DNA of 64,000 nt from a virus (IMGVR_UViG_3300012228_000003:3050-67049); one strand, 5' to 3'; positions 7,515 through 31,398 are shown, counted from the stretch's first letter. The notes: generated by a model not told the origin, from the sequence alone. Numbers and translations: made by a program.

Positions 7515-8234
7515 TCAAGCTCCCTTGATCGCGACCCAGCCGGCGAAGTTGAGGGTTCGCCAGAAGCACTCGACGTACGAAAACCCCGCAGAGGTCAAGA
7601 GGTCTTCATTCCACTGCGCCGTCACAGGGACCAAGACTCCCTCCAGCGCCAGGCGCTTTCGCTCGACGTCGTCCTTGCTGTAGCCGTTGGCCTCCTTGAC
7701 TTGCCAGTAGAGAGAGTTGAGCAGGTCGTTGGTCTCGCAGCAAGACCCCATCACCTTCTCGACCAGGATCGCCGCGCCGCCCGGCAGAGTACTGTTGAAG
7801 AGGCTTCGGACGATTCGCTGCCGATGCTCGATGGGCGTGAACTGGAGAGTCAAGACGCAGAGGGTCAGCGAGGCCAGGAAGGGCGGGTAGGTCGTCCTCA
7901 AGTCCAGCTCCTGAACGTGAGCGACTCCGCAAGAGATCAGCCCGGCGAACCTCTCCCGCGCCGCTGCCAGCATCGGAGGCGAGACCTCGACCCCGACGTA
8001 TTGATTGAAGGCTCCGAACTTCGCGACGAACGGCGCAAGCGCCTCGCCCCTGCTGCAACCCAAATCGACTATTGCCGTCTGCGGCTTGACGAACTTGCAG
8101 CCTACCTCGAAGCAGAGCCTGCGCATCTCGTCGTAACTGGGAATGGAACGTGAGAGCATCTGATCAAAGTTGTTCGTGACATCTTCGTCAAAGGTCCACT
8201 TCTTGCCCTTCTCTAGTTTTGCTTCAGTCGGCAT
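7515..8234 (-). CDS. cmoA: Carboxy-S-adenosylmethionine synthase (CmoA family)
   Basis: WTFDEDV..FDQMLSRSIPSY, DLGCSRG, LTLQF, PGG...LVEK, KRLALEGVL (conserved Arg), AGF...FWRTLNF. Confidence 0.9.
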   Translation of the reverse strand: MPTEAKLEKGKKWTFDEDVTNNFDQMLSRSIPSYDEMRRLCFEVGCKFVKPQTAIVDLGCSRGEALAPFVAKFGAFNQYVGVEVSPPMLAAARERFAGLISCGVAHVQELDLRTTYPPFLASLTLCVLTLQFTPIEHRQRIVRSLFNSTLPGGAAILVEKVMGSCCETNDLLNSLYWQVKEANGYSKDDVERKRLALEGVLVPVTAQWNEDLLTSAGFSYVECFWRTLNFAGWVAIKGA

Positions 8235-8540
8235 TTTTCTTTCCTTTTGGATGTAGTTTTCCAGTTTGACCCTTGCTGATCTTTTGCCTGTGCTCCTCGG
8301 ACAAGGGAACTCCGAGATGAGCCTCGCTCAGTTTTCTCTTCCAATCTCCTTCATAGAAAATTCAGACTCTCCATACTTTCGCATCGCACGGTGCAGGAGA
8401 GTCTTCTTGTCCAATTTCGCCGAGGACCTGTGATGAATCCATCGAAAGGCTAACGTGTGACTCGTTTGCCCGACGTAGATTTTCCCGTTTACAAGGTTCG
8501 TCACCAAGTAAATCAGCCAGATTTTCTCCTCTACCATCAA
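8235..8540 (-). pseudogene. Degenerate GIY-YIG/NUMOD3 homing endonuclease
   Basis: LIY..NLVNGKIYVGQT...R..H...AMRKYG, then an early stop. NUMOD3-like KRKLSEAHLG..SEEHRQKISKG continues in another frame. Confidence 0.7.
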
Positions 8541-8656
8541 GGTCTCCTGAAAGATTGTCGAAAAAAGTTGCCCTACTTATCTCAGTATACTCCAAGAACT
8601 TGCGTTGAGAGTCAAGAAAATCTCGTGCAAAACCGGTCATCTACGCCAAAACCCCC

Positions 8657-8685
8657 TTGCCATCTACAGCACCTCAGGCTATAGT
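8657..8685 (+). promoter_or_regulatory. Sigma70-like promoter
   Basis: TTGCCA-N17-TATAGT upstream of the isolated plus-strand gene. Confidence 0.7.
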
Positions 8686-8742
8686 GAAGACGTGAGGACG
8701 ATTGATCCTCAGCACCATCAAACCCTTTCAAGGAGTCCACCC

Positions 8743-9141
8743 ATGACCGAGAACAACGTCGCCACCGTCTCCGCCCCCGCGCAAGCTGCTAAGGCCCCGA
8801 AGGTCAAGAAGGCCTCAAAGAAGGCGGCGCCGGCCCAGCGAGAGGCCAACGACGGCCTTCGCAAGCCCCAGGTTCGCATCCTCAAAGCCCTGGCCAAGCA
8901 CGGCCCACTCTCTCGCAATCCCCTCGCGAGCAAGGCCAAGGTCGGCCCGAATCAGGTCGTCGGCTTGACCGGCTCGGCTACCCCCGAAGCTCGCAAGTCC
9001 ATCGAAGCCTACCACGGCTACGTCAGCCTGATCACTCGCGGCTTGGTCCGCGACAAGGTCATCGACGTCGATGGAGTCAAGGAGCGCCTCTTCGAGGTCA
9101 CGGCGGCGGGCAAGAAGATGGCCGCGAAGATCGAAGCCTAG
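8743..9141 (+). CDS. Winged-helix DNA-binding protein with Lys/Ala-rich N-terminus
   Basis: AAGGAG RBS; PQVRILKALA...GLVRDKVIDVDG...FEVTAAGKK. Confidence 0.75.
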   Translation: MTENNVATVSAPAQAAKAPKVKKASKKAAPAQREANDGLRKPQVRILKALAKHGPLSRNPLASKAKVGPNQVVGLTGSATPEARKSIEAYHGYVSLITRGLVRDKVIDVDGVKERLFEVTAAGKKMAAKIEA

Positions 9142-9167
9142 GCAAGTCACGTCAACCTGACTTCAAA

Positions 9168-9192
9168 ATCCCCGGCCATCGAGCCGGGGTCT
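9168..9192. terminator. Hairpin between convergent genes
   Basis: CCCCGGC-catcga-GCCGGGG. Confidence 0.55.
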
Positions 9193-9193
9193 C

Positions 9194-11288
9194 TCATTTC
9201 TGCCCCAGCATCTTGCATAGAGCCTTCGTCGCTGCTTCGATGTTGCTCCCCTTGTTCCACCACGAGTCGACTCCCGAAGGGTGGGGCAGCAAGAGGAACG
9301 TCGCCCCCTTGACCTGCCTGACCTCCAGGAATGCCATGTCTGCCAGATCGAAGGCTTCGGCCACCCCTCGACCTACCAAGACCACTCGCCTGCCAGAGAC
9401 TGACAACAGGCAGGCAGTGCGACGTGCCTCGTCGAGGGGGAAGATGTCTCCCTTGCCGCCCTCCGAGTGACCCCGGAATCTGTCGATCAAGTTGACCGCC
9501 TCGAAGGAGGTCAAGAGATTCGCCAGCGACGTGCCCAGCACCGCAGCGAGGCGCTCCCCTGAGTTGCCGGAGGAGGCTCTGCGATCCTCTCTGGCGTCGG
9601 TCAGCACCGAGGGAGACTGGCCGACGAGGAGGGGGCGAGCGTTGGCGAGGCGAACCTTCGCAGAGAGCACCTTCCTGTCGACGGCGGGGATCAGGACGAG
9701 GTCTCTGACCGTCTCCGCGACCGCCCTCATCATCAGCGGAGGCACTGCGCGACCGAGGCGCTCCCATTGCTGGGAATATGATCCTGTGAGCACGAAGTTG
9801 TCGGGGAAGGCGCAGATTCGGCGCAGCTCCGCGATGGAGAACTTTCGCTGCAGGGTCGGGTGACAGACCGATGCCAGCGAGGGAGTCCCACCTTCGGCAG
9901 TGACGGTCGGTGAGGCTCCATCGAGGGGGGCGCGGACTAGCTGGAAGAACTTGTCGCTCTGCTCTCCTGGCAGGAGCTTCGCGGCCTCGGCCCCGACCGC
10001 GAACCTCGACATGTCAGAATCGGACTCGACCTGCGTCAGCCGCACGTCCCCGCCCCCTGATCTGCCGTTGCCGCTGTTGGGACTGGCACCAATGGTGCCA
10101 GCCGGTTCCTTCTCTGCATCCTTCCAGCCCTCCTCGCCGAAGGCCACGTTGGCGCCAACCTCGACCTTGACCCCGTGAGAACCTGACCTCGTGCCTCGCA
10201 CGGTCATCGCCGGATCGTCGGCGGAGTTCTCGACCACTCCGGCTCTCTTGTCGTTGGTGATGATCGTCTTGACCTCCGGCACTCTGTTGCCGGTAGCTTC
10301 TCGAAACGTGTGAATGATGGTCGGTGCCGGTCTTTGCCCCGCATCCTCCCACTCCTTGTCGGTCCCCTTCTTGCTGAAGTCTCCTCCTGGCACGCGACCA
10401 ACTTCGGAAATCCACGGGATCGCCTCGCGGACCGAGTAGCGATGGGGCAATGGCTTCGGGTGAGCGGGCATCAGCGGCTTGCCGTCGGAGTCCTCCAGAT
10501 CGTTCCGCACCCCGACGAAGATGCAGCGCTGCCGCTGCTGAGGGACTCCTAGCCACTGCGCATCAAGGACCTTGCAAGCTATGCGATAGCCACAAGCCTT
10601 CAGCTCCTTGAGAATCTCCAGGAAGTATCCCTTGGCCGTTCCCTTGACGAGTCCTGAGACGTTCTCGGCGACGAAGGTCTTCGGCTGAATGCCCTTGAGC
10701 AATCGTGCGAACTCGAAGAACAGGTCGTCGGTTCGCTGCGAGGTATCCGAATATTTCTTGACCGCCCCCCAGTCCCGCTGCCGCTTGCCTGCGGTCGAGA
10801 ATGATGCACAGGGCGGCGAGCCGTCTAATAGGTCTAGCTCTCCGGGCTTCATGCCGATGATCTTCAACACGCTCTCTGGCGTCACCTCTCGTATGTCCCT
10901 CTCGTCAAGGTGCGTCCCCGGCCTCATGTTCGCTCGATAACTGTCCCTGGCGGCCTCGACGAACTCCGAGGCCAAGAGGACGCGGAAGCCGGCCATTCGA
11001 TAACCCAGACTGGAGCCTCCGCAGCCGGAGAAGGTAGAGACCACCGTGAGACCGTTCCAGGGGATCGCCGTGATCTCGGCCATGCTGGGCACTCGGTAGG
11101 GGGGCTTCTCGTCGATGTCATCGCAGAGCTTCGGCATCTGACCATCCTCCTCTATGTAGTAGCTTCCCAGACCGAACCCGACCCCCCCCCGCACGGATGG
11201 TGCGGCAAGGTTCCTTGCTTATGTTCCTTCTCTCGACCCAGCCGTTCATCTTGCCAGCTGGTTGAGGGCAGATCAGCCAGAGCGTCAT
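9194..11288 (-). CDS. C5-cytosine DNA methyltransferase-family enzyme (predicted carboxymethyltransferase) with tandem TRD-like modules and a C-terminal UDG-like domain; 5' module frameshifted at G9
   Basis: FSGCGG (I), GSPPCASFS (IV), ENV (VI), QQRQR (VIII), RRICAFPD (IX), LGRAVPP (X, N>R); C-terminal LLVGQSP...LPHPSG. An internal ATG at 11137 has a GAGGAGG RBS. Confidence 0.9.
11182..11190 (-). repeat. G9 homopolymer (C9 on +)
   Basis: Direct reading; G8 would put ATG 11288 in frame with the MTase. Confidence 0.9.
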
Positions 11289-11977
11289 GGCGCTTCGTCC
11301 TCCTGACCTTCCTTCGCTTGAACGTCTCCTCCGCTGAAAGCATACCCGCAGCGGGGGCAGATGTGATCGACCTCGATGTCCTCACCGACTTCGGGGAAGT
11401 CTTCGGGCGAGGCAGGCTCGGCGAAGTCCATCGCTCTCAGCACCTCTAGCTCGTCTAGGCTCCAGCCGACCATCTCCAGCCCGGCCTTCGAGACCATCTG
11501 CTCCAGCTTGGCGACTTGCTCGAAGTCCCAGCGACCGTGCTCGGCACTTCGATTGTCCGCCATCCCGTAGGCGGCAAGCTCGGCCTCAGAGAGGTCGTCG
11601 TCTCTGGCCGCCGCGATCTTCGTCCAGCCGAGCGCCTTGGCCGCTTCGAGGCTCCCGTTGCCTGCGATGACGATGCCGTCCTTCGTTGCAGCTAAGGGCC
11701 TGCGCTGACCGAAGAGGGCGAAGGAGAGCATGATAGCCCGGATCGACTTCTCAGGATGCTTCTTCGCGTTGTTCGGATCGGGGGTCAGCGAGTCGATCTT
11801 GACCACAAGGGATTTGAGCGAGGGGGCGATCCGGTCCTTCGGCGCCTCTCGCATCACCCGCTCCTCCCGCTCCAGTTGAGTCTCGGCCTTCTTCGCGGCT
11901 TCAGGAGTCTTGACCTTGGTCACTAACCCCGCTGCTCCTCGGTTGACCAGCTGCGGTCTGTCGTCGAACTTAGGCAT
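11285..11977 (-). CDS. ParB/Srx-like protein with C-terminal Zn ribbon
   Basis: LTPDPNNAKKH, FGQRRPL, IAGNG, ADNRSAE..WD; HICPRCGYAF. Confidence 0.85.
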   Translation of the reverse strand: MPKFDDRPQLVNRGAAGLVTKVKTPEAAKKAETQLEREERVMREAPKDRIAPSLKSLVVKIDSLTPDPNNAKKHPEKSIRAIMLSFALFGQRRPLAATKDGIVIAGNGSLEAAKALGWTKIAAARDDDLSEAELAAYGMADNRSAEHGRWDFEQVAKLEQMVSKAGLEMVGWSLDELEVLRAMDFAEPASPEDFPEVGEDIEVDHICPRCGYAFSGGDVQAKEGQEDEAP

Positions 11978-11981
11978 GTGC

Positions 11982-12701
11982 CTATCCTTTCTTGAGTAGT
12001 TGTTCCAAGCGCTTCCAATTCTTCTGCCGAGTCTGAGAGGCTACAGTCTGAGGGTTCAGTCTCTCCCTCTCGATTCTTTCTACTGCGATGTTGAAGTAGT
12101 GCTCGTTGATCTCGCAGCCGACGAATTTTCGCCCCAGCCTCATGCAAGCCACTCCGGTCGATCCGGCCCCCATGTAGGGGTCGATGATCGTCTTGGCCTT
12201 GACCTTTTCGATGCACCACTGCATGAGTGCTGCCGGCTTCTGAGAGGGATGAACTGAGACCTCTCCTCTCTCACTCTCCTTGTCGAACCCGTGCCACTTG
12301 TGCTCGAAGAGATAGACCCCCACTCCACCTTTCTTCCAAGCTAACTCGGCATCTGAGAGAAAAGTTCCAAGCTGATTGCTCCCCTTCTTGTTCCAGACGA
12401 GGACAGTGCCGACCGATAGGTGAGAGGCAAAGAACTGCCAGCCCCAGAGGATCACCTCGGGGAACCTCAGCCACGGAGTTGGATCGAACGGTTCAGAGTC
12501 CCCCGCAATTCCTTGGTCATAGTTCTTGCTTGGAGCGATGCCGTTGGTGAACCTCGTATAGTCGCAGTTGTTATCTACGCCATAGGGAGGGTCGGAGATG
12601 ACGGCCCCCTGAGACAGAGAGGCCAACGATTCAAGGCAGTCCCCCAAGATCAGCTTGTAGCGATCCGTCTCGACGATCCTCTCCGGTTCAAGCCTTGGCA
12701 T
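11982..12701 (-). CDS. N6-adenine/N4-cytosine DNA methyltransferase (beta class)
   Basis: SDPPYG, HPSQKP, IDPYMGAGSTG. Confidence 0.9.
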   Translation of the reverse strand: MPRLEPERIVETDRYKLILGDCLESLASLSQGAVISDPPYGVDNNCDYTRFTNGIAPSKNYDQGIAGDSEPFDPTPWLRFPEVILWGWQFFASHLSVGTVLVWNKKGSNQLGTFLSDAELAWKKGGVGVYLFEHKWHGFDKESERGEVSVHPSQKPAALMQWCIEKVKAKTIIDPYMGAGSTGVACMRLGRKFVGCEINEHYFNIAVERIERERLNPQTVASQTRQKNWKRLEQLLKKG

Positions 12702-14958
12702 CGGACATCACCTCCCCGTAAACTTCGGTCATCTTGGGGGTCAAGCGCCAGCGGTTCTTGGGGTTCTGCCCCTTGAACTTGGCCGTCGGCTTGAACATCT
12801 CGGTCACGTGAATCTTCGTCAGGAAGCGAAGGTAGTGGCGGACCTTCGCCTCCTCGTCGGGCAGCCAGACTGCGAGGCTCTCCGGCACCACCCCTACGTC
12901 TCCGGCCTTGAAGAGGTGGGCCACGTACTCGACGGTCTTGCCCTCTCCGGTGTTCAGGGCTGTCTGCCTGACCCTGCGCATCACCTCGCCGTCGGCGGCG
13001 GTCTTGGAGAGCACGGCAGTGAGGCACTTCGCCAGCCTCGTGAGCTGAGAGACCAGGCGGTAGGGGAGTTCCTTCTCATGGCGCTCTTCCTCCTTGGAGA
13101 GTGACGGCCTGGCCCTCATGAAGGCAATGTACCTTCCGAGGTTCTTGATCTGCGTTCGAGCCTCTTGGGGAATCTCGACGCGAGAGAGCAGAGAGTCGTC
13201 GTCGCAGAGGCGGTTGATGTAGCCTCCGGTCAACTGCATCGCATGGAGCAGGGCAGGCTCGTAGTGAGTTTCCATCTCGCAGTTCGTCCTGATCTCGGCG
13301 GTGCGGTCGGCGCGGTTGATGATCCGGTCGAGGAGCAAGTCCTCGTCCTCCTCGGTCGGGTCCTTCATCACGCAGTCGAGGAACCTGGCCCCCAACTGAC
13401 TCTGGTCCAAGGCCCTCAGCGCCGTCGTGCCGCAGAGAATCCAGGTCATCCTGATCCCCTCATGATCCATCCCCATGCCGTTGCGATAGTCAGAGCGAGC
13501 CGTCGTGTCGTAGAGGTCGCGGGCCTCGGAGAGGATACGGTCGCGATCTCCCATCTGGAGGATCGTGTCGCCGTCCTTGGTCACCAGAGACTTGTCCTTG
13601 AGCTTGAGGATCAGGGAAGAGTTGTCCCCCAACTCCGGGTCGCGGTAGCCGGAGTGGAATCCTCGGATCGTCGAGAGCGCCTTGACGTGACGATGGTTGA
13701 CCGAGAGGGCCTCGCAAAGGGTAGACTTGCCTCCGCTGGGGGGCGACATGATCTTGACCCAGAGCTGGTCACCGGCGCTGCGAGTCGAGAGAACCGAGGA
13801 GAGCATCACCGAGAGTGCTCGATCCAGCCCCTCGGTCCAGAACATCGCCTTGCGCCAAGCTTGGACCAGGGTGTTCCAGTCGGGGCAGAAGGCGCAGTTG
13901 ATCTCAGTGCCTCCCGACGCGACCGCCGCCTCGTCCCTGCCGGGCAGCCAATCGTCGGGGATCGGCTGAATCTTGTTGAGCAACTCGGAGAGATGAGGCA
14001 GACGGTCCTTGAGGTCAACGCCTCGCTTGAGGACGTCGCGAAGATCGGTGCCGTCGGGGAGGTTCGGGTCGAAGCCCTCCTCGCCCCAGCAGAGCCACTT
14101 GACGACCTTCGCAGGTTCCGTGCTCCTGCCGAGGCGCTTGGCCACTCGCTTCATCCCGTCATAGCCGGCGCGGAAGGTCTTGCCATTGACCTGACGAGGA
14201 TGGTCCGAGTCGAAGAGCAGGTCCACCTCGCAGTCCTTGAACGTCAAGGCCCACTCGTCGCGGAAGACGTTGCAGCCCGGAACCGCCAGGACGGTTCTGT
14301 CCTTGAGCAGCGAGGCCGCCTCGCTCCCGGTGACTCCCAGGTTCCTGACCTCTCCTTCACCGACGTCCTTCGCCTGCCTCATGATCTCCCAGAGGGCCAT
14401 TCCGTCCCACGGCCCCTCGCAGATCGAGAACTTCTTCTTGAGAGGATCGAGGGGGAATCGTCCGAAGATGCCGTGCGAGAGACCCGGAGAGGCCAGTAAA
14501 CTCCGCTTGCCGGAGGGGGCCGTCGTCCAGCGATAGAGCTGGCAGAGCTTGCCTTGGATGTTGTGGCCGGGGATGATCCAGTCGCCGGAGAGATTCGAGA
14601 CGCAGACCCCCCACTGGCGCAGGGTCTCGACGTCAAGGATGCCCCGATCCTGAGCCAAAGACTTCCAGGCAGAGGTCTCAGTCGCCGCCATCGAGGTGGC
14701 CAAGAGAGTCGAGAGGAAGGTGTAGACGTTGCCCCCGCCCTTCTCGCTTCCTGCTCCGCAGACCCAGCAGCGCCAGAGACCGGAGGTCAAGTTGACCGAG
14801 AACTTCCTCGGCTTGTCGCAGAAGGGGCAGTCGCCGACGGCCTGAGTCCCTTCGATGCTCAGGTCCAGCCCGTGGAAGGCGAAGGGCTTGATCAGCTTGT
14901 CAGGTCCCTCGACCGCAGCACCGTTCGCACTCGGCTCTTCGTCAATCAGTCTCGGCAT
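12688..14958 (-). CDS. Primase-helicase (Zn finger + Toprim + AAA+)
   Basis: CPFC...CWVC, EGPWD, DSD, TDLRD, SPPSGGKST P-loop. Confidence 0.8.
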   Translation of the reverse strand: MPRLIDEEPSANGAAVEGPDKLIKPFAFHGLDLSIEGTQAVGDCPFCDKPRKFSVNLTSGLWRCWVCGAGSEKGGGNVYTFLSTLLATSMAATETSAWKSLAQDRGILDVETLRQWGVCVSNLSGDWIIPGHNIQGKLCQLYRWTTAPSGKRSLLASPGLSHGIFGRFPLDPLKKKFSICEGPWDGMALWEIMRQAKDVGEGEVRNLGVTGSEAASLLKDRTVLAVPGCNVFRDEWALTFKDCEVDLLFDSDHPRQVNGKTFRAGYDGMKRVAKRLGRSTEPAKVVKWLCWGEEGFDPNLPDGTDLRDVLKRGVDLKDRLPHLSELLNKIQPIPDDWLPGRDEAAVASGGTEINCAFCPDWNTLVQAWRKAMFWTEGLDRALSVMLSSVLSTRSAGDQLWVKIMSPPSGGKSTLCEALSVNHRHVKALSTIRGFHSGYRDPELGDNSSLILKLKDKSLVTKDGDTILQMGDRDRILSEARDLYDTTARSDYRNGMGMDHEGIRMTWILCGTTALRALDQSQLGARFLDCVMKDPTEEDEDLLLDRIINRADRTAEIRTNCEMETHYEPALLHAMQLTGGYINRLCDDDSLLSRVEIPQEARTQIKNLGRYIAFMRARPSLSKEEERHEKELPYRLVSQLTRLAKCLTAVLSKTAADGEVMRRVRQTALNTGEGKTVEYVAHLFKAGDVGVVPESLAVWLPDEEAKVRHYLRFLTKIHVTEMFKPTAKFKGQNPKNRWRLTPKMTEVYGEVMSDAKA

Positions 14959-16988
14959 CAGATCGCCATCCCTTCGGCCCAGGAAGATTCGTGGTACTCC
15001 ATCGACACCGGCGTCGGCACGTTGATTCGCTTGCCGCTCTGCTCCATCAAATGCCGCAGCTTGCGATAGAGCGGCAGGTTGCCCAGCTTCGCTCGCTTGG
15101 GCATCTCGATCACTAGCTCGTCATGAACCTGGAGAACGATGGCCCCGTCGGTCACTTCGTCTTGACGCCACTCTTCGAGCTGCGCATCGCACGAAGTCAT
15201 CCCCAACATCATCCAGTAACAAGCCGTGCCCTGAACGTGATAGTTCAGCGGGGTCGTCGGCATGATCTTGCCCCACTGAGTCCGCTGGCAGAGCAGGGGG
15301 TAGCCCCTGGCGCAGCCCAGGCCAGAGTCGGGGATCGTCTCGACGTAGCCGAGCCTGTCGGCGCAAGACTTCATTTTATCGGAAAGCAAGGCGATGCGAG
15401 GGAAGCGGTGGCGAATCTTCTCGAAGGCTCCGTGCTGGTGATAGGTCGCATCGGCTTTCCTCTGCTGCGCTCCGTAGATCACCGAGAAGTTTCCGTTCTT
15501 GACCCACTGGTAGAGGGTCGCCTCGAACTCGACCTTGAACCCCTTGCCCCACTTCGCAAACTCCTTCGGCCAGAGCAAGTCGCAGATGACCAAGTGATAA
15601 CTGCCGTAGTAGGGTCCGTCATCGGGATGCTCGAAGACCCACATCAAGTCCTTCTCTTGAGCCTCGAAGGTCGGGATGCGCAGCTCAAGGTTCTGCCCGT
15701 CCATCGAGACCCACTCTCTCCCCGGCCCCGGCCCGAACATCCAGCGCAGGTTCTTGCCCTTCCTCTTGAGGTCGCCCATCTCGGCGAGGTTCTTCTTCGA
15801 TATCTGCTGACCGTTCGGATTGCTCATCGAGCCGCGCATGGTCACCGTCCCGGTCGGGTTGTAGTTCGGGTAGAGCCGCCGATGGTCCTCGTCCTCTCCG
15901 GGCAACCAGAACTTCTCGTAGCTCTTGACGTAGCCGAGGGCCGTCTGCCGCTTGCGATAGTGCTGAAGATTGAGGACGAACTCCTGCGCCGGACTGCCAA
16001 ACTCCAGCTCGTGGACCCAGTCGTCGAGGACCTCGGCGTCCATCGCAGGCCCTCCCGTCTCGGTCCGCTTCGGATGGCTCAGCTTGAACTTGCCGAAGAC
16101 GACCTCGTCGAGGGCCTTCGAGCGACCGTTGACCGGCAGCACCGCGATGGCCCCCTCGCTCAGCTCGACGCAGCGCCGGCGGCAAGCCTCCGAGGTCTTG
16201 CCGTACTCGACCTTGAGGATCTCGGCGCGGCTCTTGATCGCAGTTACCGAGGCTCGTTCCATGCGACAGATCGAGGGGAGGGCCTTGATGCACTCAAGGT
16301 AGACCTCCCAGAGGTCCCTCTCTCTCAGCTCACGCTCCATCACCTTCCAGAGCGCCAAGGTCGAGATCGAATCCCCGTTGGAGTAGTCCGAGAGGACGGT
16401 CCACCAGGGATGATTCTCAGGGTACTTCAGCGTCTTCGCCACGGCTCTGGGTAGCCACATGTCGGCTCGCCAGGTCGAACCCTCCTCGACTCCCTTGGCC
16501 TTCTTGTCCTTGTCCTTGCCCTTGATCGAGGGCATTAAGGGGTCGCCGGCCTTCGCCAGGCGCCAGAGAGGAAACTTGGCCTTGGCAATCTTCTTCGCAG
16601 CTTTGACCGCGACCTCCAGGGCATCTTCGAGGGGCTTGATATTGTGACCAAGATAGATCGAGCACATCAAGGTCAGGTCGTGAGGCTGCGAGGAGGCCAG
16701 GACGTGACCGGCTCTCAAGGTGCAGTGGCCGGGGTTCCAGGGCAGCTCGACCCCGATTGAGGCCAGCGCGTGGAAGTCGAACTTGCGGTTCTGAAGGACG
16801 GACTCTTCTCGCAAGACCTCCCTGATCTCGCGGAGGTCCTGCGCCAAGATGATCGGCTTGCGGGTCAGGGGGTCGACGTCCCACTGCCACTCGGTCGTGC
16901 TCAGGTCCTCGTGAGCGACGGTCACGAAGAAGGGCCTGGCGCCGTGATATAGGTCTAGCCCCGTGCACTCCGTATCTACAGCAATCAT
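14958..16988 (-). CDS. polA: DNA polymerase family A with 3'-5' exonuclease
   Basis: AVDTECTG, NRKFD, motif A DGQNLELR, motif B KNGNFSVIYG, motif C VHDEL. Confidence 0.9.
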   Translation of the reverse strand: MIAVDTECTGLDLYHGARPFFVTVAHEDLSTTEWQWDVDPLTRKPIILAQDLREIREVLREESVLQNRKFDFHALASIGVELPWNPGHCTLRAGHVLASSQPHDLTLMCSIYLGHNIKPLEDALEVAVKAAKKIAKAKFPLWRLAKAGDPLMPSIKGKDKDKKAKGVEEGSTWRADMWLPRAVAKTLKYPENHPWWTVLSDYSNGDSISTLALWKVMERELRERDLWEVYLECIKALPSICRMERASVTAIKSRAEILKVEYGKTSEACRRRCVELSEGAIAVLPVNGRSKALDEVVFGKFKLSHPKRTETGGPAMDAEVLDDWVHELEFGSPAQEFVLNLQHYRKRQTALGYVKSYEKFWLPGEDEDHRRLYPNYNPTGTVTMRGSMSNPNGQQISKKNLAEMGDLKRKGKNLRWMFGPGPGREWVSMDGQNLELRIPTFEAQEKDLMWVFEHPDDGPYYGSYHLVICDLLWPKEFAKWGKGFKVEFEATLYQWVKNGNFSVIYGAQQRKADATYHQHGAFEKIRHRFPRIALLSDKMKSCADRLGYVETIPDSGLGCARGYPLLCQRTQWGKIMPTTPLNYHVQGTACYWMMLGMTSCDAQLEEWRQDEVTDGAIVLQVHDELVIEMPKRAKLGNLPLYRKLRHLMEQSGKRINVPTPVSMEYHESSWAEGMAI

Positions 16989-16994
16989 CCTTGA

Positions 16995-17321
16995 CTACTC
17001 CTTGTTGAGTTCTGCGACCAGTGCCTTGAGTTCCCTGACGGCCTTGGCGATGTCCCCACTAGCGAAGTACCATTGCCTGATCCTCTTGAGCTTCTTGCTC
17101 AGGACTTCTTCTTCCCTTCGCCGTCGGTCATCGATGGCCTTCTTCTGCTTTGCGATGGCCTTCAAGCGAGGATGAGAGGCCAAGAGTTCCTTGGTGATCT
17201 CCTCTTCCTCTTCGCTCAGGGCCGCATAGTCAGGGTCCTGGTATCGATAGTTTCTCTGAGACAGTTCCCTCATCAAATTCTCGACCATCCTCTTGGATGG
17301 CATTGGTTCGATCTCTTTCAT
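16995..17321 (-). CDS. Hypothetical coiled-coil protein
   Basis: AAGGAG RBS; ATGA overlap. Confidence 0.6.
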   Translation of the reverse strand: MKEIEPMPSKRMVENLMRELSQRNYRYQDPDYAALSEEEEEITKELLASHPRLKAIAKQKKAIDDRRRREEEVLSKKLKRIRQWYFASGDIAKAVRELKALVAELNKE

Positions 17322-17875
17322 TTGTTCTCCTTCATCGCTTTGCGAAATGCTTCCAGTGACTCGTAGAGGGGAGGAAACTCCCTGCCCTCGACGACCAGGC
17401 GCCACTCTTGCCACTCGACCGAGGACCAGGACCGATGGCGCTTGTCGTCCGGTCTCTCCAGCCCGACCTCTCTCAAGATGCTCCTGCCCCTCTCCAAGAT
17501 GTCCTCCATCTCCTGCCGAGAGATGACCCCCTTCTCCACTAGACTCCTCAGAAACCCCGGATGGATGAAGCCGTGGCACTTGCCGCAGAGAGGGACGGTC
17601 TCGACGTAGGTCGAGCGACCGAGCAGCCAGTCGATCTCGTATCGCTCGTGGCATTCGAGGCGACCGATGGCGAAGTCCTTGCAGGCAATGCAGTGATAGT
17701 CGGTTGAATCTCTCGCCTTGACCTTGACCTCGTTCCACCAAGCCTCCCCCATCACGACCCTCGGCGCGGTGCCGGAGAGGGGAACGGGAATCGGCGGGTC
17801 CAGCAGGACTTCGGGGCGAGGAGTCCAGATCGCTGGCTTGCGCTGCCGCAGGTTCTTCTTCAGAGGTTCGCTCAT
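17318..17875 (-). CDS. HNH-like nuclease
   Basis: CIAC...LECHERY...LCGKCHGFIH. Confidence 0.7.
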   Translation of the reverse strand: MSEPLKKNLRQRKPAIWTPRPEVLLDPPIPVPLSGTAPRVVMGEAWWNEVKVKARDSTDYHCIACKDFAIGRLECHERYEIDWLLGRSTYVETVPLCGKCHGFIHPGFLRSLVEKGVISRQEMEDILERGRSILREVGLERPDDKRHRSWSSVEWQEWRLVVEGREFPPLYESLEAFRKAMKENK

Positions 17876-18073
17876 CGACTTGCCTTGAAAGGTGAGGGGG
17901 CCGAGGTGTCCCGACCGAGGCCGAAGGACCCAAACAATCGGCCTGGCAAGGCGGCCCCCTCATAGTAAATAGGTTGGCGACTATCATCATCCTTTGGTCC
18001 TAGCCGTACAAGCGATTTCTCTCCGGCTCGCATCAGACTACTTTCATCGCTTCCCCTACCATCGATGGATCAA

Positions 18074-19354
18074 CTACTCCAACTGGCCCCACGGAATCGG
18101 ATGACTCCTGCCGTCCTTGACCACCGGCTTCTCGGTCGTCAGGTTCTTGAGGGTCACCGTCTCGTTCTTGAGGTTGACGGTCAGGACCTCGTAGTCCGAG
18201 GGCTTCAGCGGCTTCTTGGTTTTCGGGTCGATCATCGGCTTACCCTCTTTGGTCTTCCAGCACCACTTGACTACCGACCCCTTGACCGGCGAGATCGGCG
18301 CTTCCTCGGCAGGAGCTTCCTCTGCCGGGGCCTCTTCGCTCGGCGCTTCTTCGCCGGGAGCCTCTCCACCCTCCGCTGCGGCACTGGCCTCCTGGCACAT
18401 CGTCAGCACGATGGCCCAAGAGTCCGCGTTCTTCATCGCCTCGGCCTCTATGCCCAGCGAGAGGCCCAGGTCAATCAGCTTCTTACAGGCGGCCTTGCCG
18501 GCGGGAGTCTTGCCTGAAGGGTCCTTGTCCGCCGCCACCGCGACCGCTTCCCAGTCCTCGCTCTCTTCTGCCGCCGCAGGAGCCTCGGCGCCTTCATCGG
18601 GAGGAGCCTCGTCCCCGGCGGCTTCGGTCTCAGGCGGCGCTTCGTCTGCGGGAACCTCCTGCGCCGAGTCGTCCATCGGAGCCTCGCCTTCATCGGCAGG
18701 GGCGTCGCAGCGCCCGTTCCACTCCTCGTTGACTCGCGGTTCGAGATCCGCATAGGGATTCTTTTTCTTCGCCTCTTCCTTCGTCGCGTAGGGGCCGCTC
18801 TTCGTCGAGGTCCCCTGCACCGCATACCACTTGCCCTGGCGCTGGACGATCTCGGTCTTCTTGCCCTTCCAGGTCCTGAAAGTGAAGAAGGTCGGGTTCT
18901 CCGGGGCGACCAGTTCTTCCATCGAAGCCTGGAGGAAGGCGTCGACCTCCTCCGGCGTCATGTCCCCGTCGGTCGCGGCGGTGTCGACCCCCAGCAGCTT
19001 GAGGTGGTTGAGCATGTCCGCGTAGTGCTCTGCGAAGGTCGCCTTGGCCTTGCCCGGCGTGTCGCAGAGAGGGATCGGCCCGATCTTCGTGTGCAACCCT
19101 CGGCACGGTCTGCCGTCGTGAGAGACCGGGCTGCGGACGATTCCCTGCGCCATGAAGTAGGGCTGCCCCTTGAGGTCCCCGGTCTTGTACTCGTCAATCT
19201 TGATCATGCTCAGCTTGGCGACTCCCCCTTCGATTCCCGATGGCAGGGTAGCGTTCCCTGCCTCCGGCGGCTTGTCCTTGTTTGCCTTGTGAGCTGCGGC
19301 GACCTTCGCGCCAAGCTTCTTGGCCAGCGGTGCGTTCTTCTTGACTCCCGGCAT
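18074..19354 (-). CDS. Acidic replication-module protein, possibly ssDNA-binding
   Basis: Follows the nuclease and AAA genes; long E/A/P-rich linkers; AAGGAG RBS. Function inferred from context only. Confidence 0.5.
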   Translation of the reverse strand: MPGVKKNAPLAKKLGAKVAAAHKANKDKPPEAGNATLPSGIEGGVAKLSMIKIDEYKTGDLKGQPYFMAQGIVRSPVSHDGRPCRGLHTKIGPIPLCDTPGKAKATFAEHYADMLNHLKLLGVDTAATDGDMTPEEVDAFLQASMEELVAPENPTFFTFRTWKGKKTEIVQRQGKWYAVQGTSTKSGPYATKEEAKKKNPYADLEPRVNEEWNGRCDAPADEGEAPMDDSAQEVPADEAPPETEAAGDEAPPDEGAEAPAAAEESEDWEAVAVAADKDPSGKTPAGKAACKKLIDLGLSLGIEAEAMKNADSWAIVLTMCQEASAAAEGGEAPGEEAPSEEAPAEEAPAEEAPISPVKGSVVKWCWKTKEGKPMIDPKTKKPLKPSDYEVLTVNLKNETVTLKNLTTEKPVVKDGRSHPIPWGQLE

Positions 19355-28416: not shown

Positions 28417-31398
28417 ATGCTGTACGTCTGCAATCTGTGCGAGATCGAGATAGAGTCCCCGGAGCAATCGCTCTTGCCGGCTAAGACGGGAGGATGCCTT
28501 CACGTCTGGGAGGATAAGAAGAGCATGGACCCTACGTCCAAGACCTTGAAGGCAACATCGTCCCTCTCAGCGATCTCGGAGCCGACGATGACCAAGCCTT
28601 GCGAGACTACGAGCGATGGTGTGACCGCCAGCAACGCTGAACCATTCATCGTTCCCCCCTCGAAGCTCTCCTTCGGCGGCAAGACTGCCTTCCGCAATCG
28701 ACCCTCTCCTCTCGCCAATCGCCTCAAGGAGCAAGCTGATAACTTCATCCCCCACCTCATCGTCGAGGCTCGCGCAGGAACCGGGAAGACGACGACCCTC
28801 GTCTGGGGCATCCTGAGCATGTTCCGCCAGCGCTGCCCCGGAATCTGGGAGAGGCTCAAGTCGGTCATCGGCTTCGAGCCGGTCCCTTCCCCGCAGCAGG
28901 CAAAGATCTGGGAGGCGATGGCTCTCTCCTCGAACGCCAAGACGATTCAGTTCACCGCCTTCAACAAGGCCCTTCGCAATGACCAACCAATCTTGACCCC
29001 TGATGGCTGGAAGCAAATCGGAGATGTAGAGATCGGAGACTTAGTTTTCGGTCCCGACGGTAAACAGTACCCCGTAATCAAGGTCAATCACCTAGGCTTG
29101 CGTCCAATCTACGAAGTTCTCTTTAGCGACGGTACGGAGGTTTTAGCAGATGAGGAACATCTCTGGATGACAGAAACAATCAAATATCAACCTGGGAATA
29201 GCAAAGGATGGTACAAGCGAGAGCGATGGTCACTTAAGACAACTAAACAGATCATGGACACCGTCGAAGGAGTTCATCGCGTTCCCCATCTCTCAAGCCC
29301 AGTAGAGCATCCTACGAGAGAACTGCCCCTCGATCCCTACCTCCTCGGTGCCCTGATCGGTGATGGCTCCTTCGTCTACAACGCAGTCTCGTTTTGCTCC
29401 GCCGAAGATGATATGACTGAGCTAGTTAGGCAGACTATCCCAGAAGAGTGTGAAATGATCTCTACTGGAGATGGTCGGCTCGGTTGGAGAATAGTTGCTA
29501 AGAACAGAAGGCGAACGATGGCCCTAGGAAGCAATCCTGTGCTAAATGCTCTTCACGGGCTAGGACTTCACGGCAAGAGATCAGGAGAGAAATTCATCCC
29601 TGAGAAATACCTCTTCGCCGACGTTAACCAGCGCCTCGCGATGGTACAAGGACTGATGGACACCGATGGATGCTCCAACGGAGTTATGTCCCCCTTCGTC
29701 ACGACTAGTCATCTCCTAGCCTATGGGGTACAGCACCTTGTACAGTCCCTTGGCGGAGTCTGCTCCGTATCATTCAAGAAGTCTAGCGAACCTCAGAACA
29801 GCGACTCGTACTGGGTCAATGTCAGGCTCCCTGTTTTCATGTGCCCCTTCCGGCTCCCTCGCAAGATCAACTCTTGGAAGCCGAGAGAGCGAGAGGAGCA
29901 GACTCCTCGCAAGATCATCTCAGTCTCAAGGACTGCCGATGCAGAGGCAACCTGTATCACCATCAATTCCCCTGATCATCTCTTCCTGACTGCCGGTTGC
30001 ATCCCGACGCACAATAGTATCGTCCGCGAGTTCGAGGGCAAGTGGGGGTGGGTGCAGACTGCTCTGCGAGAGGTCGGCGTGACCCTGAACTTCAACACCA
30101 ACCACAGCATAGGCTTCGCTGCGGTTCGCAAGGCTTTCCCTCGCATCGAGGTCTCGGAGTATCGGGTGATGGACCTGATCTCCGAGGTGCTCGGTCAGGA
30201 CATCCGCGAGCTACGCCGGAACAAGTTCGAGATGCTCAAGGGCACGGAGCGTCTGGTCGGTCTCTGCAAGATGAACCTGCTCGACGGAGAGGACGCGGAT
30301 GAACTCCAGAAGCTCGTCTCTCATCACGACCTGGGCATCGACGGCTTCAAGAGCGAGGTCTTCGGCCTGGTGCCGAGGATCATCGCTCTCTGCAAGGACC
30401 CCTCGAAGGACCGGCGGATCGACTACGACGACATGGTCTGGCTGCCTGTCGTGCATCGCCTCAACATGGCCAAGAACGACCTCCTGTTAGTTGACGAAGC
30501 ACAGGACCTGAACCGCTGCCAGCAAGCCCTCGCGAAGATGGCCGGGCATCGCCTGATCCTGGTCGGCGACCCGAAGCAGGCCATCTACGGCTTCGCGGGC
30601 GCCGACGTCGAGTCGATGCCGAGGATGCACCAAGAGCTTGCCGGGAATGCGAACATCCCTCGCTGCGAAGTCCTGCCCCTGACCATGACTCGGCGCTGCG
30701 GCAAGGCCATCGTCAGGGAGGCCAACAAGATCGTGCCGGACATCGAGGCATTCCCGACGAATCCCGAAGGCGAAGTCCTGCAAGCGCTCTACCCGACCTT
30801 CGAGCGGAACGGCAAGACCGAGGAGCGGAAGTTCGAGGAGACCTATCTGGCACTGGTGCAGGACGGCGACATGGTCCTCTGCCGAGTCAATGCTCCGCTG
30901 GTGTCCCAGTGCTTCAGGTTCCTTAAGCGGGGCATCAAGGCCAACATCCAGGGTCGGGACGTCGGGCAGGGATTGATAACGACCATTCAGAAGATGGGAG
31001 CCGAGAACCTGCCGACCCTCGTCGCGAAGATCGGAGACTGGCTGGAGCTGGAGTCGAACAAGGAGCGAGCCAAGCGCAACCCCTCGGAGTCGAGGATCAT
31101 CGCCCTGCAAGACCGGCACGACTGCATCCTCGCTTTCACGGAAGGAGCGAAGGAAGTGACCGACGTCATAAAGAAGATCGAGAGCATCTTCACCGATGAC
31201 CGGACCAGGGCGGGGATCAGGCTGTCATCCGTGCACAAGGCAAAAGGTTTGGAGGCAAAGCGAGTGTTTATCCTCCAGCCAAAAGGCGCTGCAATCCCTC
31301 ATCCCCTCGCCAAGAGTCCTTGGCAGGTCGGACAGGAGTACAACTTGCTCTACGTCGCCATCACCAGAGCCATCAACCAACTCTACTTCGTCAGCTAA
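28417..31398 (+). CDS. UvrD/Rep-like SF1 helicase, intein-containing
   Basis: ARAGTGKTT, AFNK, VDEAQD, VGDPKQAIYGFAGA, TRRC, SVHKAKGLE, YVAITRA. Confidence 0.9.
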   Translation: MLYVCNLCEIEIESPEQSLLPAKTGGCLHVWEDKKSMDPTSKTLKATSSLSAISEPTMTKPCETTSDGVTASNAEPFIVPPSKLSFGGKTAFRNRPSPLANRLKEQADNFIPHLIVEARAGTGKTTTLVWGILSMFRQRCPGIWERLKSVIGFEPVPSPQQAKIWEAMALSSNAKTIQFTAFNKALRNDQPILTPDGWKQIGDVEIGDLVFGPDGKQYPVIKVNHLGLRPIYEVLFSDGTEVLADEEHLWMTETIKYQPGNSKGWYKRERWSLKTTKQIMDTVEGVHRVPHLSSPVEHPTRELPLDPYLLGALIGDGSFVYNAVSFCSAEDDMTELVRQTIPEECEMISTGDGRLGWRIVAKNRRRTMALGSNPVLNALHGLGLHGKRSGEKFIPEKYLFADVNQRLAMVQGLMDTDGCSNGVMSPFVTTSHLLAYGVQHLVQSLGGVCSVSFKKSSEPQNSDSYWVNVRLPVFMCPFRLPRKINSWKPREREEQTPRKIISVSRTADAEATCITINSPDHLFLTAGCIPTHNSIVREFEGKWGWVQTALREVGVTLNFNTNHSIGFAAVRKAFPRIEVSEYRVMDLISEVLGQDIRELRRNKFEMLKGTERLVGLCKMNLLDGEDADELQKLVSHHDLGIDGFKSEVFGLVPRIIALCKDPSKDRRIDYDDMVWLPVVHRLNMAKNDLLLVDEAQDLNRCQQALAKMAGHRLILVGDPKQAIYGFAGADVESMPRMHQELAGNANIPRCEVLPLTMTRRCGKAIVREANKIVPDIEAFPTNPEGEVLQALYPTFERNGKTEERKFEETYLALVQDGDMVLCRVNAPLVSQCFRFLKRGIKANIQGRDVGQGLITTIQKMGAENLPTLVAKIGDWLELESNKERAKRNPSESRIIALQDRHDCILAFTEGAKEVTDVIKKIESIFTDDRTRAGIRLSSVHKAKGLEAKRVFILQPKGAAIPHPLAKSPWQVGQEYNLLYVAITRAINQLYFVS
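28969..30015 (+). mobile_element. Class 3 intein (Ala1) with LAGLIDADG homing endonuclease, 349 aa
   Basis: Starts ALRNDQPILTPDGW; HLW (block B), TCITI (block F), PTHN/S (block G); LGALIGDG and QGLMDTDG; lower GC. Confidence 0.9.

Follow-up and report, generated by a model that had tools for sequence, protein, structure and literature searches.

A CmoX-type cytosine methyltransferase homologue joined to a uracil-DNA glycosylase-fold domain, next to a CmoA homologue, in a complete phage genome

The stretch of viral DNA analysed here (IMGVR_UViG_3300012228_000003:3050-67049; 64,000 nucleotides, hereafter the window) comprises bases 3050-67049 of a 67,049-bp IMG/VR virus record, which has direct terminal repeats and an estimated completeness of 100%; the record represents a tailed phage that has not been cultured, with its whole genome of 67 kb. 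On the minus strand of the window we found an open reading frame (ORF) that joins a C5 cytosine methyltransferase-fold domain of the CmoX type to a C-terminal domain of the uracil-DNA glycosylase (UDG) superfamily, and the predicted synthase of the unusual cofactor, a CmoA homologue, is encoded downstream on the same strand (Table 1). The longest form of the fusion ORF, 9194-11194(-), encodes 666 amino acids (aa) from a GTG start at 11194, and the protein database entry for the gene (P0002) corresponds to the 647-aa form. Residue numbers refer to the 666-aa form unless stated otherwise.

Table 1. Features of the gene block, with positions counted from the first base of the window
Feature	Position	Strand	Basis or remark
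CmoX-UDG fusion gene	9194..11137	-	ORF listing; 647 aa from ATG at 11137
C5 cytosine methyltransferase-fold domain, CmoX type	9707..11047	-	PF00145, E 3.6e-53, residues 50-496 (666-aa form)
SPPC motif with catalytic Cys	10808..10819	-	translation; aligned to SpCmoX S95-C98
Motif-X Arg codon, predicted carboxylate-binding residue	9749..9751	-	R482 (666-aa form) = R463 (647-aa form)
Insertion rich in Gly, about 170 residues long, within the variable (target-recognition) region	9953..10468	-	pLDDT (predicted local distance difference test) 21-30 in the full-length model
C-terminal UDG-superfamily domain (motifs GQSPS, EAVNL, PHPSG..WWN)	9197..9643	-	phrog_12275, E 1.5e-17; AlphaFold2 (AF2) model
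Ser at predicted base-stacking position	9572..9574	-	column count of 60: F 36, L 22, S 1 (window), V 1
CmoA homologue, predicted carboxy-SAM (carboxy-S-adenosylmethionine) synthase, 239 aa	7515..8234	-	TIGR00740, E 1.8e-42
CmoA R194, equivalent to E. coli CmoA R199	7653..7655	-	4GEK alignment (14-residue chain offset) and translation
ParB-like gene directly upstream of CmoX	11285..11977	-	phrog_620, E 2.2e-31
N6/N4 DNA methyltransferase, second DNA-modification gene of the block	11982..12701	-	PF01555, E 1.5e-18
GIY-YIG homing-endonuclease fragment, 70 aa, between cmoX and cmoA	8328..8540	-	PF01541, E 1.1e-6; phrog_314, E 1.1e-14
Small ORF between cmoX and cmoA	8605..9141	+	paralogue of ORF 6494-6907(-)

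The published point of reference is Synechococcus phage S-B43. Yang et al. (Nat Commun 2025, PMC12783734) report in their main text that its SpCmoX makes 5-carboxymethylcytosine (5cxmC) from the carboxy-SAM (Cx-SAM) of a phage CmoA; residue R350 of SpCmoX replaces N304 of M.HhaI and contacts the carboxymethyl group, and the wild-type enzyme used only Cx-SAM while the R350N variant used neither cofactor. That text also counts 5,615 CmoX candidates, defined by SPPC and the Arg, in IMG/VR, UniProt and MGnify, whose contigs carried 4,257 CmoA, 2,251 ligase and 1,660 ParBc genes (PMC12783734).

When the fusion ORF was compared with all PDB sequences, SpCmoX (8YF3) was the closest (E 1.3e-69) and M.HaeIII the runner-up (2e-21), and a direct comparison with the S-B43 gene gave about 49% identity in each conserved block. 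The ORF also matched TIGR00675 (E 1.4e-47) and has the fold and motifs of C5 methyltransferases. Its motif X, QQWERLGRAVPPLMM, aligned over QQTERVGRMVPPLMM of SpCmoX with R482 on R350 (counted along chain 8YF3_A in the alignment). Between 9760 and 9740 the minus strand has the codons cgc ctc ggt cgc gca gtg cct (R L G R A V P), and the motif-X Arg is encoded by the later of the two cgc; a prediction made earlier from the sequence of the window (the original prediction), which had placed an Arg in LGRAVPP at codon 9749-9751 where C5 methyltransferases carry Asn, was thus correct to the base. The window protein therefore carries both sequence features by which Yang et al. recognise CmoX, the SPPC motif and an Arg at the position of SpCmoX R350 (M.HhaI N304), and the CmoA homologue on the same strand provides the neighbouring gene that further marks such loci. 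No second PF00145-family gene was found in the whole phage genome. Taken by homology, these features support the identity of the methyltransferase domain as CmoX. Its large insertion gave no match in a Pfam scan even at E<=5 and is not present in P0005, a relative of the fusion protein. A full-length AF2 model built on a six-sequence alignment was unusable (mean pLDDT 47.1) and uninformative on both the packing of the domains and the folding of the insertion.

The CmoA-like ORF starts 959 nt downstream of the methyltransferase stop. It matched the phage family phrog_4752 with an E-value of 4.5e-68 and, over residues 11-238, E. coli CmoA (4GEK) with an E-value of 6.2e-29. In the E. coli enzyme, R199 forms a salt bridge with the carboxylate of the cofactor, and further cofactor contacts are listed in the text of Byrne et al. 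2013 (PMC3663124). This Arg, which is absent from ordinary S-adenosylmethionine (SAM) methyltransferases, is present in the window protein as R194. By a manual reading of the 4GEK alignment, eight of the eleven cofactor contacts named in the text of PMC3663124 are identical, namely (E. coli residue first) Y39 (Y34), D62 (D57), G64 (G59), S66 (S61), A70 (A65), D117 (D111), F137 (F132) and R199 (R194), and conservative changes were seen at D89 (E83) and at I118 (L112), a main-chain contact. The original prediction of a CmoA with a KR..LE motif about 1 kb downstream likewise agrees with what we found, since the ORF 7515-8234(-) contains RKRLALE at 7641-7661 and is separated from the methyltransferase gene by the 959-nt gap. 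Compared with the E. coli CmoA/CmoB pathway for 5-oxyacetyluridine (cmo5U) in tRNA (4GEK, 4IWN; text of PMC3663124), the CmoA fold and the carboxylate-binding Arg are shared, whereas CmoB was not found in the phage and the acceptor would be a DNA cytosine rather than tRNA U34.

The window CmoA is nearer to bacterial CmoA than to SpCmoA. In a BLAST alignment, SpCmoA (S-B43; locus L162, 3443-4138) carries a Glu where E. coli CmoA has R199 and the window protein R194, and the nearest Arg of SpCmoA lies four residues on, in the column of window E198. The CmoA matches in the CmoX-seeded viral loci described below fell into two E-value bands, 1e-47 to 1e-95 and 1e-8 to 1e-19. From these two bands and the low identity of 28% between the window protein and SpCmoA, phage CmoAs seem to form at least two distant groups.

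We then considered the motif-X Arg across relatives. It was invariant in all 39 aligned close homologues, which had been picked from the 120 best of 3,545 matches. With this alignment as seed, the 80 best viral-contig loci comprised 72 of the Arg type and 8 of the Asn type, and a CmoA-like gene was present in the fetched locus of 68 of the 72 Arg-type loci as against none of the 8 Asn-type loci (Fisher p 1.7e-8). In a second viral set, seeded with the UDG-like domain, CmoA was present in 16 of the 20 loci with Arg and in none of the 9 with Asn (16/19 without L079, an Arg-type locus that aligned poorly); since the two viral sets share some contigs, they are not fully independent. On bacterial genome contigs (71 loci), CmoA accompanied 54 of 60 Arg-type and 0 of 3 Asn-type genes, the remaining loci having Ala (2) or Met (1) in the motif-X column or leaving it uncovered (5). 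In the CmoX-seeded viral set, a ParB-like gene lay beside 63 of the 72 Arg-type loci, and an Asn-synthase-like match was found in only 4 of the 72. Because the Arg is invariant among close homologues and tracks CmoA, its presence is more than chance; judged from these sequence sets, it predicts CmoA linkage across viral and bacterial contigs alike.

The bacterial set also included several Verrucomicrobiota metagenome-assembled genomes with three to seven copies per genome of a ParB / Arg-type CmoX / CmoA-like cassette (loci within L165-L232, e.g. L176, L177, L179, L182, L193, L230 and L232), the copies sharing 74-96% DNA identity over 3-13 kb. They look like a family of integrated elements, and suggest that 5cxmC-type modification may be widespread in bacterial chromosomes or prophages too.

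The window and S-B43 have in common a CmoA and a C5-methyltransferase homologue with SPPC and an R350-type Arg, as well as a ParB-like neighbour, a gene type (ParBc) that the main text of Yang et al. reports on many contigs (PMC12783734). They differ in that S-B43 has the ligase CmoY, whereas no CmoY ligase was found in the whole genome here: the Asn-synthase family (PF00733) had no match with E<=1 in the genome, which is rated 100% complete (the control matched 14/14 genomes), and neither had SpCmoY used as a query. SpCmoX is also much shorter (372 aa against 647 aa here, where the insertion of about 170 residues and the C-terminal UDG-fold domain are added), and its target is GC (main text of PMC12783734). 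The engineered M.MpeI N374K, cited in the same main text as a DNA carboxymethyltransferase (PMC12783734), shares with the window protein a basic residue in place of the motif-X Asn, which in M.MpeI leads to acceptance of Cx-SAM; it carries an engineered Lys and targets CG, whereas the window protein has a natural Arg and belongs to a different clade.

The catalytic activities that make up the pathway are all inferred from these sequence features, folds and gene associations. By homology to the S-B43 enzymes, CmoA would convert SAM and prephenate into Cx-SAM. The methyltransferase-fold domain would flip the target cytosine, the Cys of SPPC would attack C6 and the carboxymethyl group would be transferred to C5, with R482 pairing with the carboxylate of the cofactor. 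Unelaborated 5cxmC would be the end product and would protect the phage DNA against host restriction. Since no CmoY-type ligase was found in the complete genome, plain 5cxmC is probably the final product of what is probably a CmoA-CmoX system without CmoY. The original prediction of 5cxmC is in this way supported by the CmoX sequence features, by SpCmoX as the closest structure, by a CmoA with R194 and by the ParB-like gene. It had added that natural phage examples had already been reported and that the chemistry might not be new, and rightly so (PMC12783734); its core claim is right but not new, because CmoA-CmoX chemistry has been published. The core pathway is known from thousands of candidates, of which the window is one more member and was probably counted among the IMG/VR candidates of Yang et al. 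Three features mark it as a variant: a complete genome lacks the ligase, the methyltransferase has a large insertion, and CmoX is fused to UDG. What is new is the architecture, a CmoX with a C-terminal UDG-fold domain.

This last domain goes beyond the original prediction: by profile comparison and structure modelling, about 170 C-terminal residues of the methyltransferase ORF are a UDG-fold domain. Alone, the window domain matched PF03167 with an E-value of 0.0021 and 18.6 bits, under the cut-off of 24.3, and a single-sequence search of the C-terminal 169 aa against the PDB returned chance matches to cytochrome b (E about 1), so that a family profile was needed. Of 1.84 billion cluster representatives searched, at least 1,605 were related to the domain at E<=1e-3, and 595 of them still at E<=1e-10. 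Most of the family seems to be stand-alone, since 144 of the 150 relatives among the matches listed were shorter than 300 aa, with a typical stand-alone size of 140-200 aa. We aligned the window domain with 59 stand-alone relatives of about 140-190 aa, leaving out longer ones, and 56 of these 60 family members matched PF03167 at E<=0.01 (best 7.2e-12). Against the PDB, the family profile matched 3IKB (1.3e-5), followed by UdgX and family-4 UDGs (E 0.005-0.2). The AF2 model of the domain built on the family alignment had a pLDDT of 93.8 and a predicted template modelling score (pTM) of 0.86. A Foldseek search with it gave 28 matches at E<=0.001, with a best query-normalised template modelling score (TMq) of 0.53-0.62; the matches listed were almost all of the UDG superfamily, with UdgX, family-4 UDG, TDG, MUG and SMUG1 at the top, and the model has the alpha/beta fold of UDGs. 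In the ESM Atlas the domain occurs in unnamed clusters that are 93-98% viral.

Eight residues were invariant in the 60 sequences (Gly28, Asn71, Gly78, Gly85, Gly111, Pro140, Ser143 and Asn150), and His141 was present in 59. The window domain has motif A (G-x-x-P-x) as GQSPS, motif B (H-P-S) within PHPSG and the base-reading Asn within EAVNL. We assign to the conserved Asn and His the roles that such residues have in known UDGs, recognition of the uracil face and stabilisation of the leaving base. Across the family, the motif-A Pro is followed by a small residue (Ser, Gly or Ala), as is the case in TDG and SMUG1, which accept 5-substituted uracils; in family-1 UDGs, motif A carries a catalytic Asp. 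The best structural and profile matches were to family-4 UDG and UdgX (1UI0, 6AIL), and in the UdgX profile alignment the G-x-A-P of motif A, the Phe of 'PFxG', the Asn and the HPS of motif B align with the family. The window domain is about 50 residues shorter than these proteins, and the column of the cross-linking His109 of UdgX is Arg in the family consensus by a manual reading of the profile alignment. Family-4 UDGs hold a 4Fe-4S cluster with four Cys ligands. No Cys was found among the invariant or near-invariant columns of the 60-sequence alignment; an Fe-S cluster is therefore unlikely, and we did not file the domain under family 4.

The fusion recurs outside the window. Among the 120 best CmoX matches, five other clusters (P0003-P0006 and P0010) combined PF00145 with PF03167 and were 52-82% identical to the window protein in end-to-end alignment; all six independent fusion clusters, that of the window included, have kept the motif-X Arg and the UDG motifs. 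The neighbours of the UDG-like gene were then tallied by tblastn in 80 viral loci. A CmoX-clade methyltransferase lay within 8 kb in 30 of them, CmoA in 16 and ParB in 27, and the UDG and CmoX matches were spaced by <=150 bp in 15 of the 27 loci measured. Nine methyltransferase neighbours of the domain were of the Asn type and are presumably, by that residue, ordinary 5-methylcytosine (5mC) enzymes. As a rough baseline, 2.9 million viral contigs yielded at least 573 confirmed CmoX-clade relatives, out of 597 stretches that matched the pattern.

The TET-associated glycosyltransferase TAGT, reportedly defined by Iyer et al. in 2013 in NAR, was the other recurrent partner. Of the 80 loci, 23 had a TAGT homologue no more than 8 kb away, in 13 cases no more than 500 bp away, and 52 of the 80 had either a CmoX-clade methyltransferase or TAGT within 8 kb. 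Pfam placed the domain in larger ORFs together with TAGT (PF20691, E 1e-43 to 1e-48) in L023, L038, L059 and L062, and tblastn gave a TAGT match inside the UDG-bearing ORF in L030 and L051 as well. In L011-L013, the domain is joined to an Asn-synthase-like piece. When whole records with the UDG-like gene were considered, PF00145 was found in 38/80, TAGT in 25/80 and one or the other in 59/80; of those at least 90% complete, 22/28 had either family. A strict linkage of the UDG-like domain to C5 methyltransferases was rejected, as PF00145 occurred in 38/80 records and 14/28 near-complete ones, and the linkage holds only if TAGT is counted. We also looked for TET/JBP (PF12851) in five TAGT-UDG contigs and found no match, with the limits that the control matched no genome and that four of the contigs are fragments of 15-20%.

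The Asn-synthase-like case was seen in L011, L012 and L013 7209-8462 as a 417-aa ORF, with an Asn-synthase-like N-terminal part (PF00733, E 2.8e-5) followed by the UDG-like domain, directly after an Arg-type CmoX and before CmoA; to judge by its domains, it is a possible CmoY-UDG fusion. Among 50,697 cultured-phage records, only PhiJL001 (AY576273.1; L001) contained the domain. The match, at 8001-8456, spans annotated gp16 and gp17, and the gene may be split or mis-annotated; nearby genes encode a glucosyltransferase, a thymidylate synthase resembling dUMP hydroxymethylase and a dCMP deaminase.

A related known system comes from Burke et al. (PNAS 2021, PMC8256090), whose main text describes phage clusters of C5 methyltransferase, TET and glycosyltransferase genes in which post-replicative hypermodification of cytosine C5 starts with a GpC-type C5 methyltransferase. 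The UDG-like family is fused or adjacent to TAGT genes of the kind found in such clusters (Pfam PF20691), while the window is without TAGT. A UDG partner is not mentioned in the main text of Burke et al., where the sole 'glycosylase' is aGPT-PPlase (PMC8256090), and the main text of Yang et al., supplements aside, has no mention of a glycosylase, a UDG or a fused domain (PMC12783734). Among the relevant literature found, CmoX was named only in Yang et al., and no CmoX-UDG or TAGT-UDG link was found in the main texts of the literature searched.

What could a UDG-fold domain do on a cytosine-modifying enzyme? C5 methyltransferases promote cytosine deamination when the cofactor is limiting. We regard it as about an even chance that the domain is a deamination-repair, or quality-control, glycosylase, which would remove uracil or a 5-substituted uracil opposite G after deamination of a target or modified cytosine, whether this were spontaneous or occurred by way of the enzyme's covalent intermediate under a shortage of cofactor. 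A glycosylase is favoured because the base-reading Asn and the His are kept and the residue after the motif-A Pro is small. The partnership is not specific to the carboxymethyl group, since some methyltransferase neighbours are of the Asn type and many partners are TAGT; the Asn-type partners therefore fit a general deamination-repair role. In E. coli, Dcm, which modifies cytosine at C5, is encoded together with Vsr, which repairs what deamination makes of the Dcm mark. We propose this pair as a functional analogy, in which C5 modification and deamination repair would play the same parts, although the folds are unrelated: Vsr is an endonuclease with T:G as its substrate, and the window domain has a glycosylase fold.

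A nearer precedent comes from phages with hypermodified thymine, in which, according to the text of Missoury et al. (NAR 2026, PMC13697223), an active UDG domain fused to an A-family polymerase protects genome integrity. As in the window, a UDG-fold domain is there fused to a phage DNA enzyme in a setting of modified pyrimidines (the modification being predicted here); the partner is a polymerase in that case and a base-modifying enzyme in ours, and our domain belongs to another family, a minimal domain of about 150 aa (phrog_12275). More generally, we tentatively suggest, at slightly worse than even odds, that the phrog_12275 family is a dedicated third component of phage post-replicative pyrimidine-C5 hypermodification. 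It could be a mismatch glycosylase that removes what deamination leaves of modified cytosines (U, T, 5-hydroxymethyluracil (5hmU) or 5-carboxymethyl-U opposite G), a phage counterpart of Vsr or TDG by which a densely C5-marked genome would escape mutation, or it could be a base-flipping presenter that offers 5-substituted pyrimidines to CmoX, CmoY-like ligases and TAGT. If this suggestion were true, the CmoX-UDG fusion of the window would be Rosetta-stone evidence for the coupling.

The best explanation of the locus, to which we give a probability of about 80% on the strength of its sequence, is a complete phage whose block of replication and modification genes encodes a CmoA-CmoX pathway for 5cxmC plus a UDG-fold domain on the CmoX. 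Several observations weigh against this explanation or against the roles proposed for its added domain. The CmoA homologue is spanned by TIGR00740 from residue 8 to 239 of 239, but scores 145.7 bits, below the equivalog cut-off of 193.3 (against NF011995 it scored 105, the cut-off being 285); its identity to the assayed SpCmoA is just 28%, and two of the E. coli cofactor contacts are swapped, N90 for V84 and N132 for V127 (contacts as named in the text of PMC3663124). As the assayed SpCmoA is still more distant, we read the sub-cut-off score as a sign of the divergence of phage CmoAs and not as an exclusion. The methyltransferase carries a 170-residue insertion in its variable region, and several neighbouring ORFs without a family match leave room for an unrecognised tailoring enzyme. 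As for the UDG-like domain, the window protein is alone in having Ser as its predicted stacking residue, which is Phe or Leu in 58 of the 60 sequences (and Phe in the closest fusion relatives), and it also has Ser in place of the near-invariant Ala of motif A; because of these two substitutions, the domain of the window may possibly be weakened. Neither a C5 methyltransferase nor TAGT was found in 21 of the 80 records with the UDG-like gene, nor in 6 of the 28 near-complete ones, and these six were mostly the weakest matches to the query. The neighbourhood counts come from 80 sampled loci, without a random-contig control. Finally, the UDG-like gene was present in only 10 of the 72 Arg-type CmoX loci and in only 1 of the 71 bacterial loci, and is therefore accessory to the system, not core.

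Two alternatives concern what the added domain does and what becomes of 5cxmC. It is unlikely, in our view, that the UDG domain is a non-hydrolytic module that flips bases or tethers DNA for CmoX, a CmoY-like ligase or TAGT. Fusion to three classes of modification enzyme (CmoX, TAGT and Asn-synthase-like) fits such a non-catalytic module and tells against the glycosylase role, as do the Ala or Ser of motif A where a family-1 UDG would have its catalytic Asp and the absence of the stacking Phe or Leu from the window copy. Set against this are the uracil-reading Asn71, kept in 60/60 sequences, and the leaving-group His141, kept in 59/60 (the roles of these residues in known UDGs), and the predominance of stand-alone members under 300 aa. 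Moreover, a CmoX would flip its own target base, SpCmoX being active as a monomer (main text of PMC12783734), and there is the precedent of active UDG domains fused to phage DNA enzymes (text of PMC13697223). That 5cxmC is only an intermediate, whose carboxyl an unrecognised non-CmoY enzyme of the phage elaborates, we consider rather improbable. S-B43 virion DNA was found to contain only a glycine amide and not 5cxmC, and Yang et al. expect diverse ligases (main text of PMC12783734); the ORFs 16995-17990 and 18074-19354 had no Pfam or PHROG match, and several further neighbouring ORFs had none in the libraries scanned. However, the complete genome yielded neither an Asn-synthase-family nor an SpCmoY-like sequence, and ligase-free systems appear common, given 2,251 ligases for 5,615 CmoX candidates (main text of PMC12783734) and, in our own viral set, the Asn-synthase-like match in only 4 of 72 loci.

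A further alternative denies the pathway itself: the methyltransferase would be an ordinary SAM-dependent 5mC enzyme, and CmoA would serve host tRNA cmo5U, SAM depletion or a methyl transfer foreign to CmoA. The sub-cut-off score of CmoA and its two replaced cofactor contacts would agree with this, and SAM depletion is raised as a possible extra role of CmoA by Yang et al. (main text of PMC12783734). We nevertheless hold it to be highly improbable. In motif X, Arg stands in the place of Asn just as it does in SpCmoX, which did not use SAM and was dead as R350N (main text of PMC12783734), and in three sets of loci CmoA occurred with Arg-type but never with Asn-type methyltransferases. A tRNA-modification role for CmoA was rejected, and is unlikely because CmoB (PF08003) gave nothing at E<=1 in the phage genome (the control matched in 13 genomes) and because there were no tRNA genes in the 64-kb window, to which the scan was confined, the first 3,049 bases of the genome being excluded.

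This complete phage genome, with the predicted writer pair and no ligase found, is a natural candidate for plain 5cxmC DNA. The co-occurrence counts give independent bioinformatic support for the motif-X Arg as a predictor of CmoA linkage, and the fusion, together with a strong neighbourhood signal, links an unnamed viral UDG-fold family to pyrimidine-C5 DNA modification. Were it true that the family repairs deaminated modified bases, this would explain how phages tolerate dense cytosine modification, and would provide a glycosylase with a new substrate specificity for 5cxmC-based sequencing and DNA-engineering chemistry.

Apart from the modification genes, the phage encodes a small terminase, an A-family DNA polymerase, an AAA_24 ATPase, a PD-(D/E)XK nuclease, a primase/helicase-like gene, a Holliday-junction resolvase and a deoxynucleoside monophosphate (dNMP) phosphatase. 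The A-family polymerase (14958-16988) showed polymerase and exonuclease domains only. Between cmoX and cmoA lies a low-GC island (8100-8700, GC 45-48% against 60-67% around it), and the GIY-YIG fragment at 8328-8540 retains only the N-terminal catalytic half and appears to be what is left of an inserted mobile endonuclease. The ORFs 8605-9141(+) and 6494-6907(-), which flank cmoA on opposite strands, are paralogues, 32% identical along 91 residues (E 7e-7). Family searches gave no significant match for either, the top one being EarA-like at E 0.049; possibly their products bind DNA and regulate the modification genes. Elsewhere in the window, the 993-aa product of ORF 28417-31398(+) has a C-terminal half that matches the DNA helicase family phrog_1967 (E 2.8e-69) and a central P-loop region that resembles terminase and primase families.

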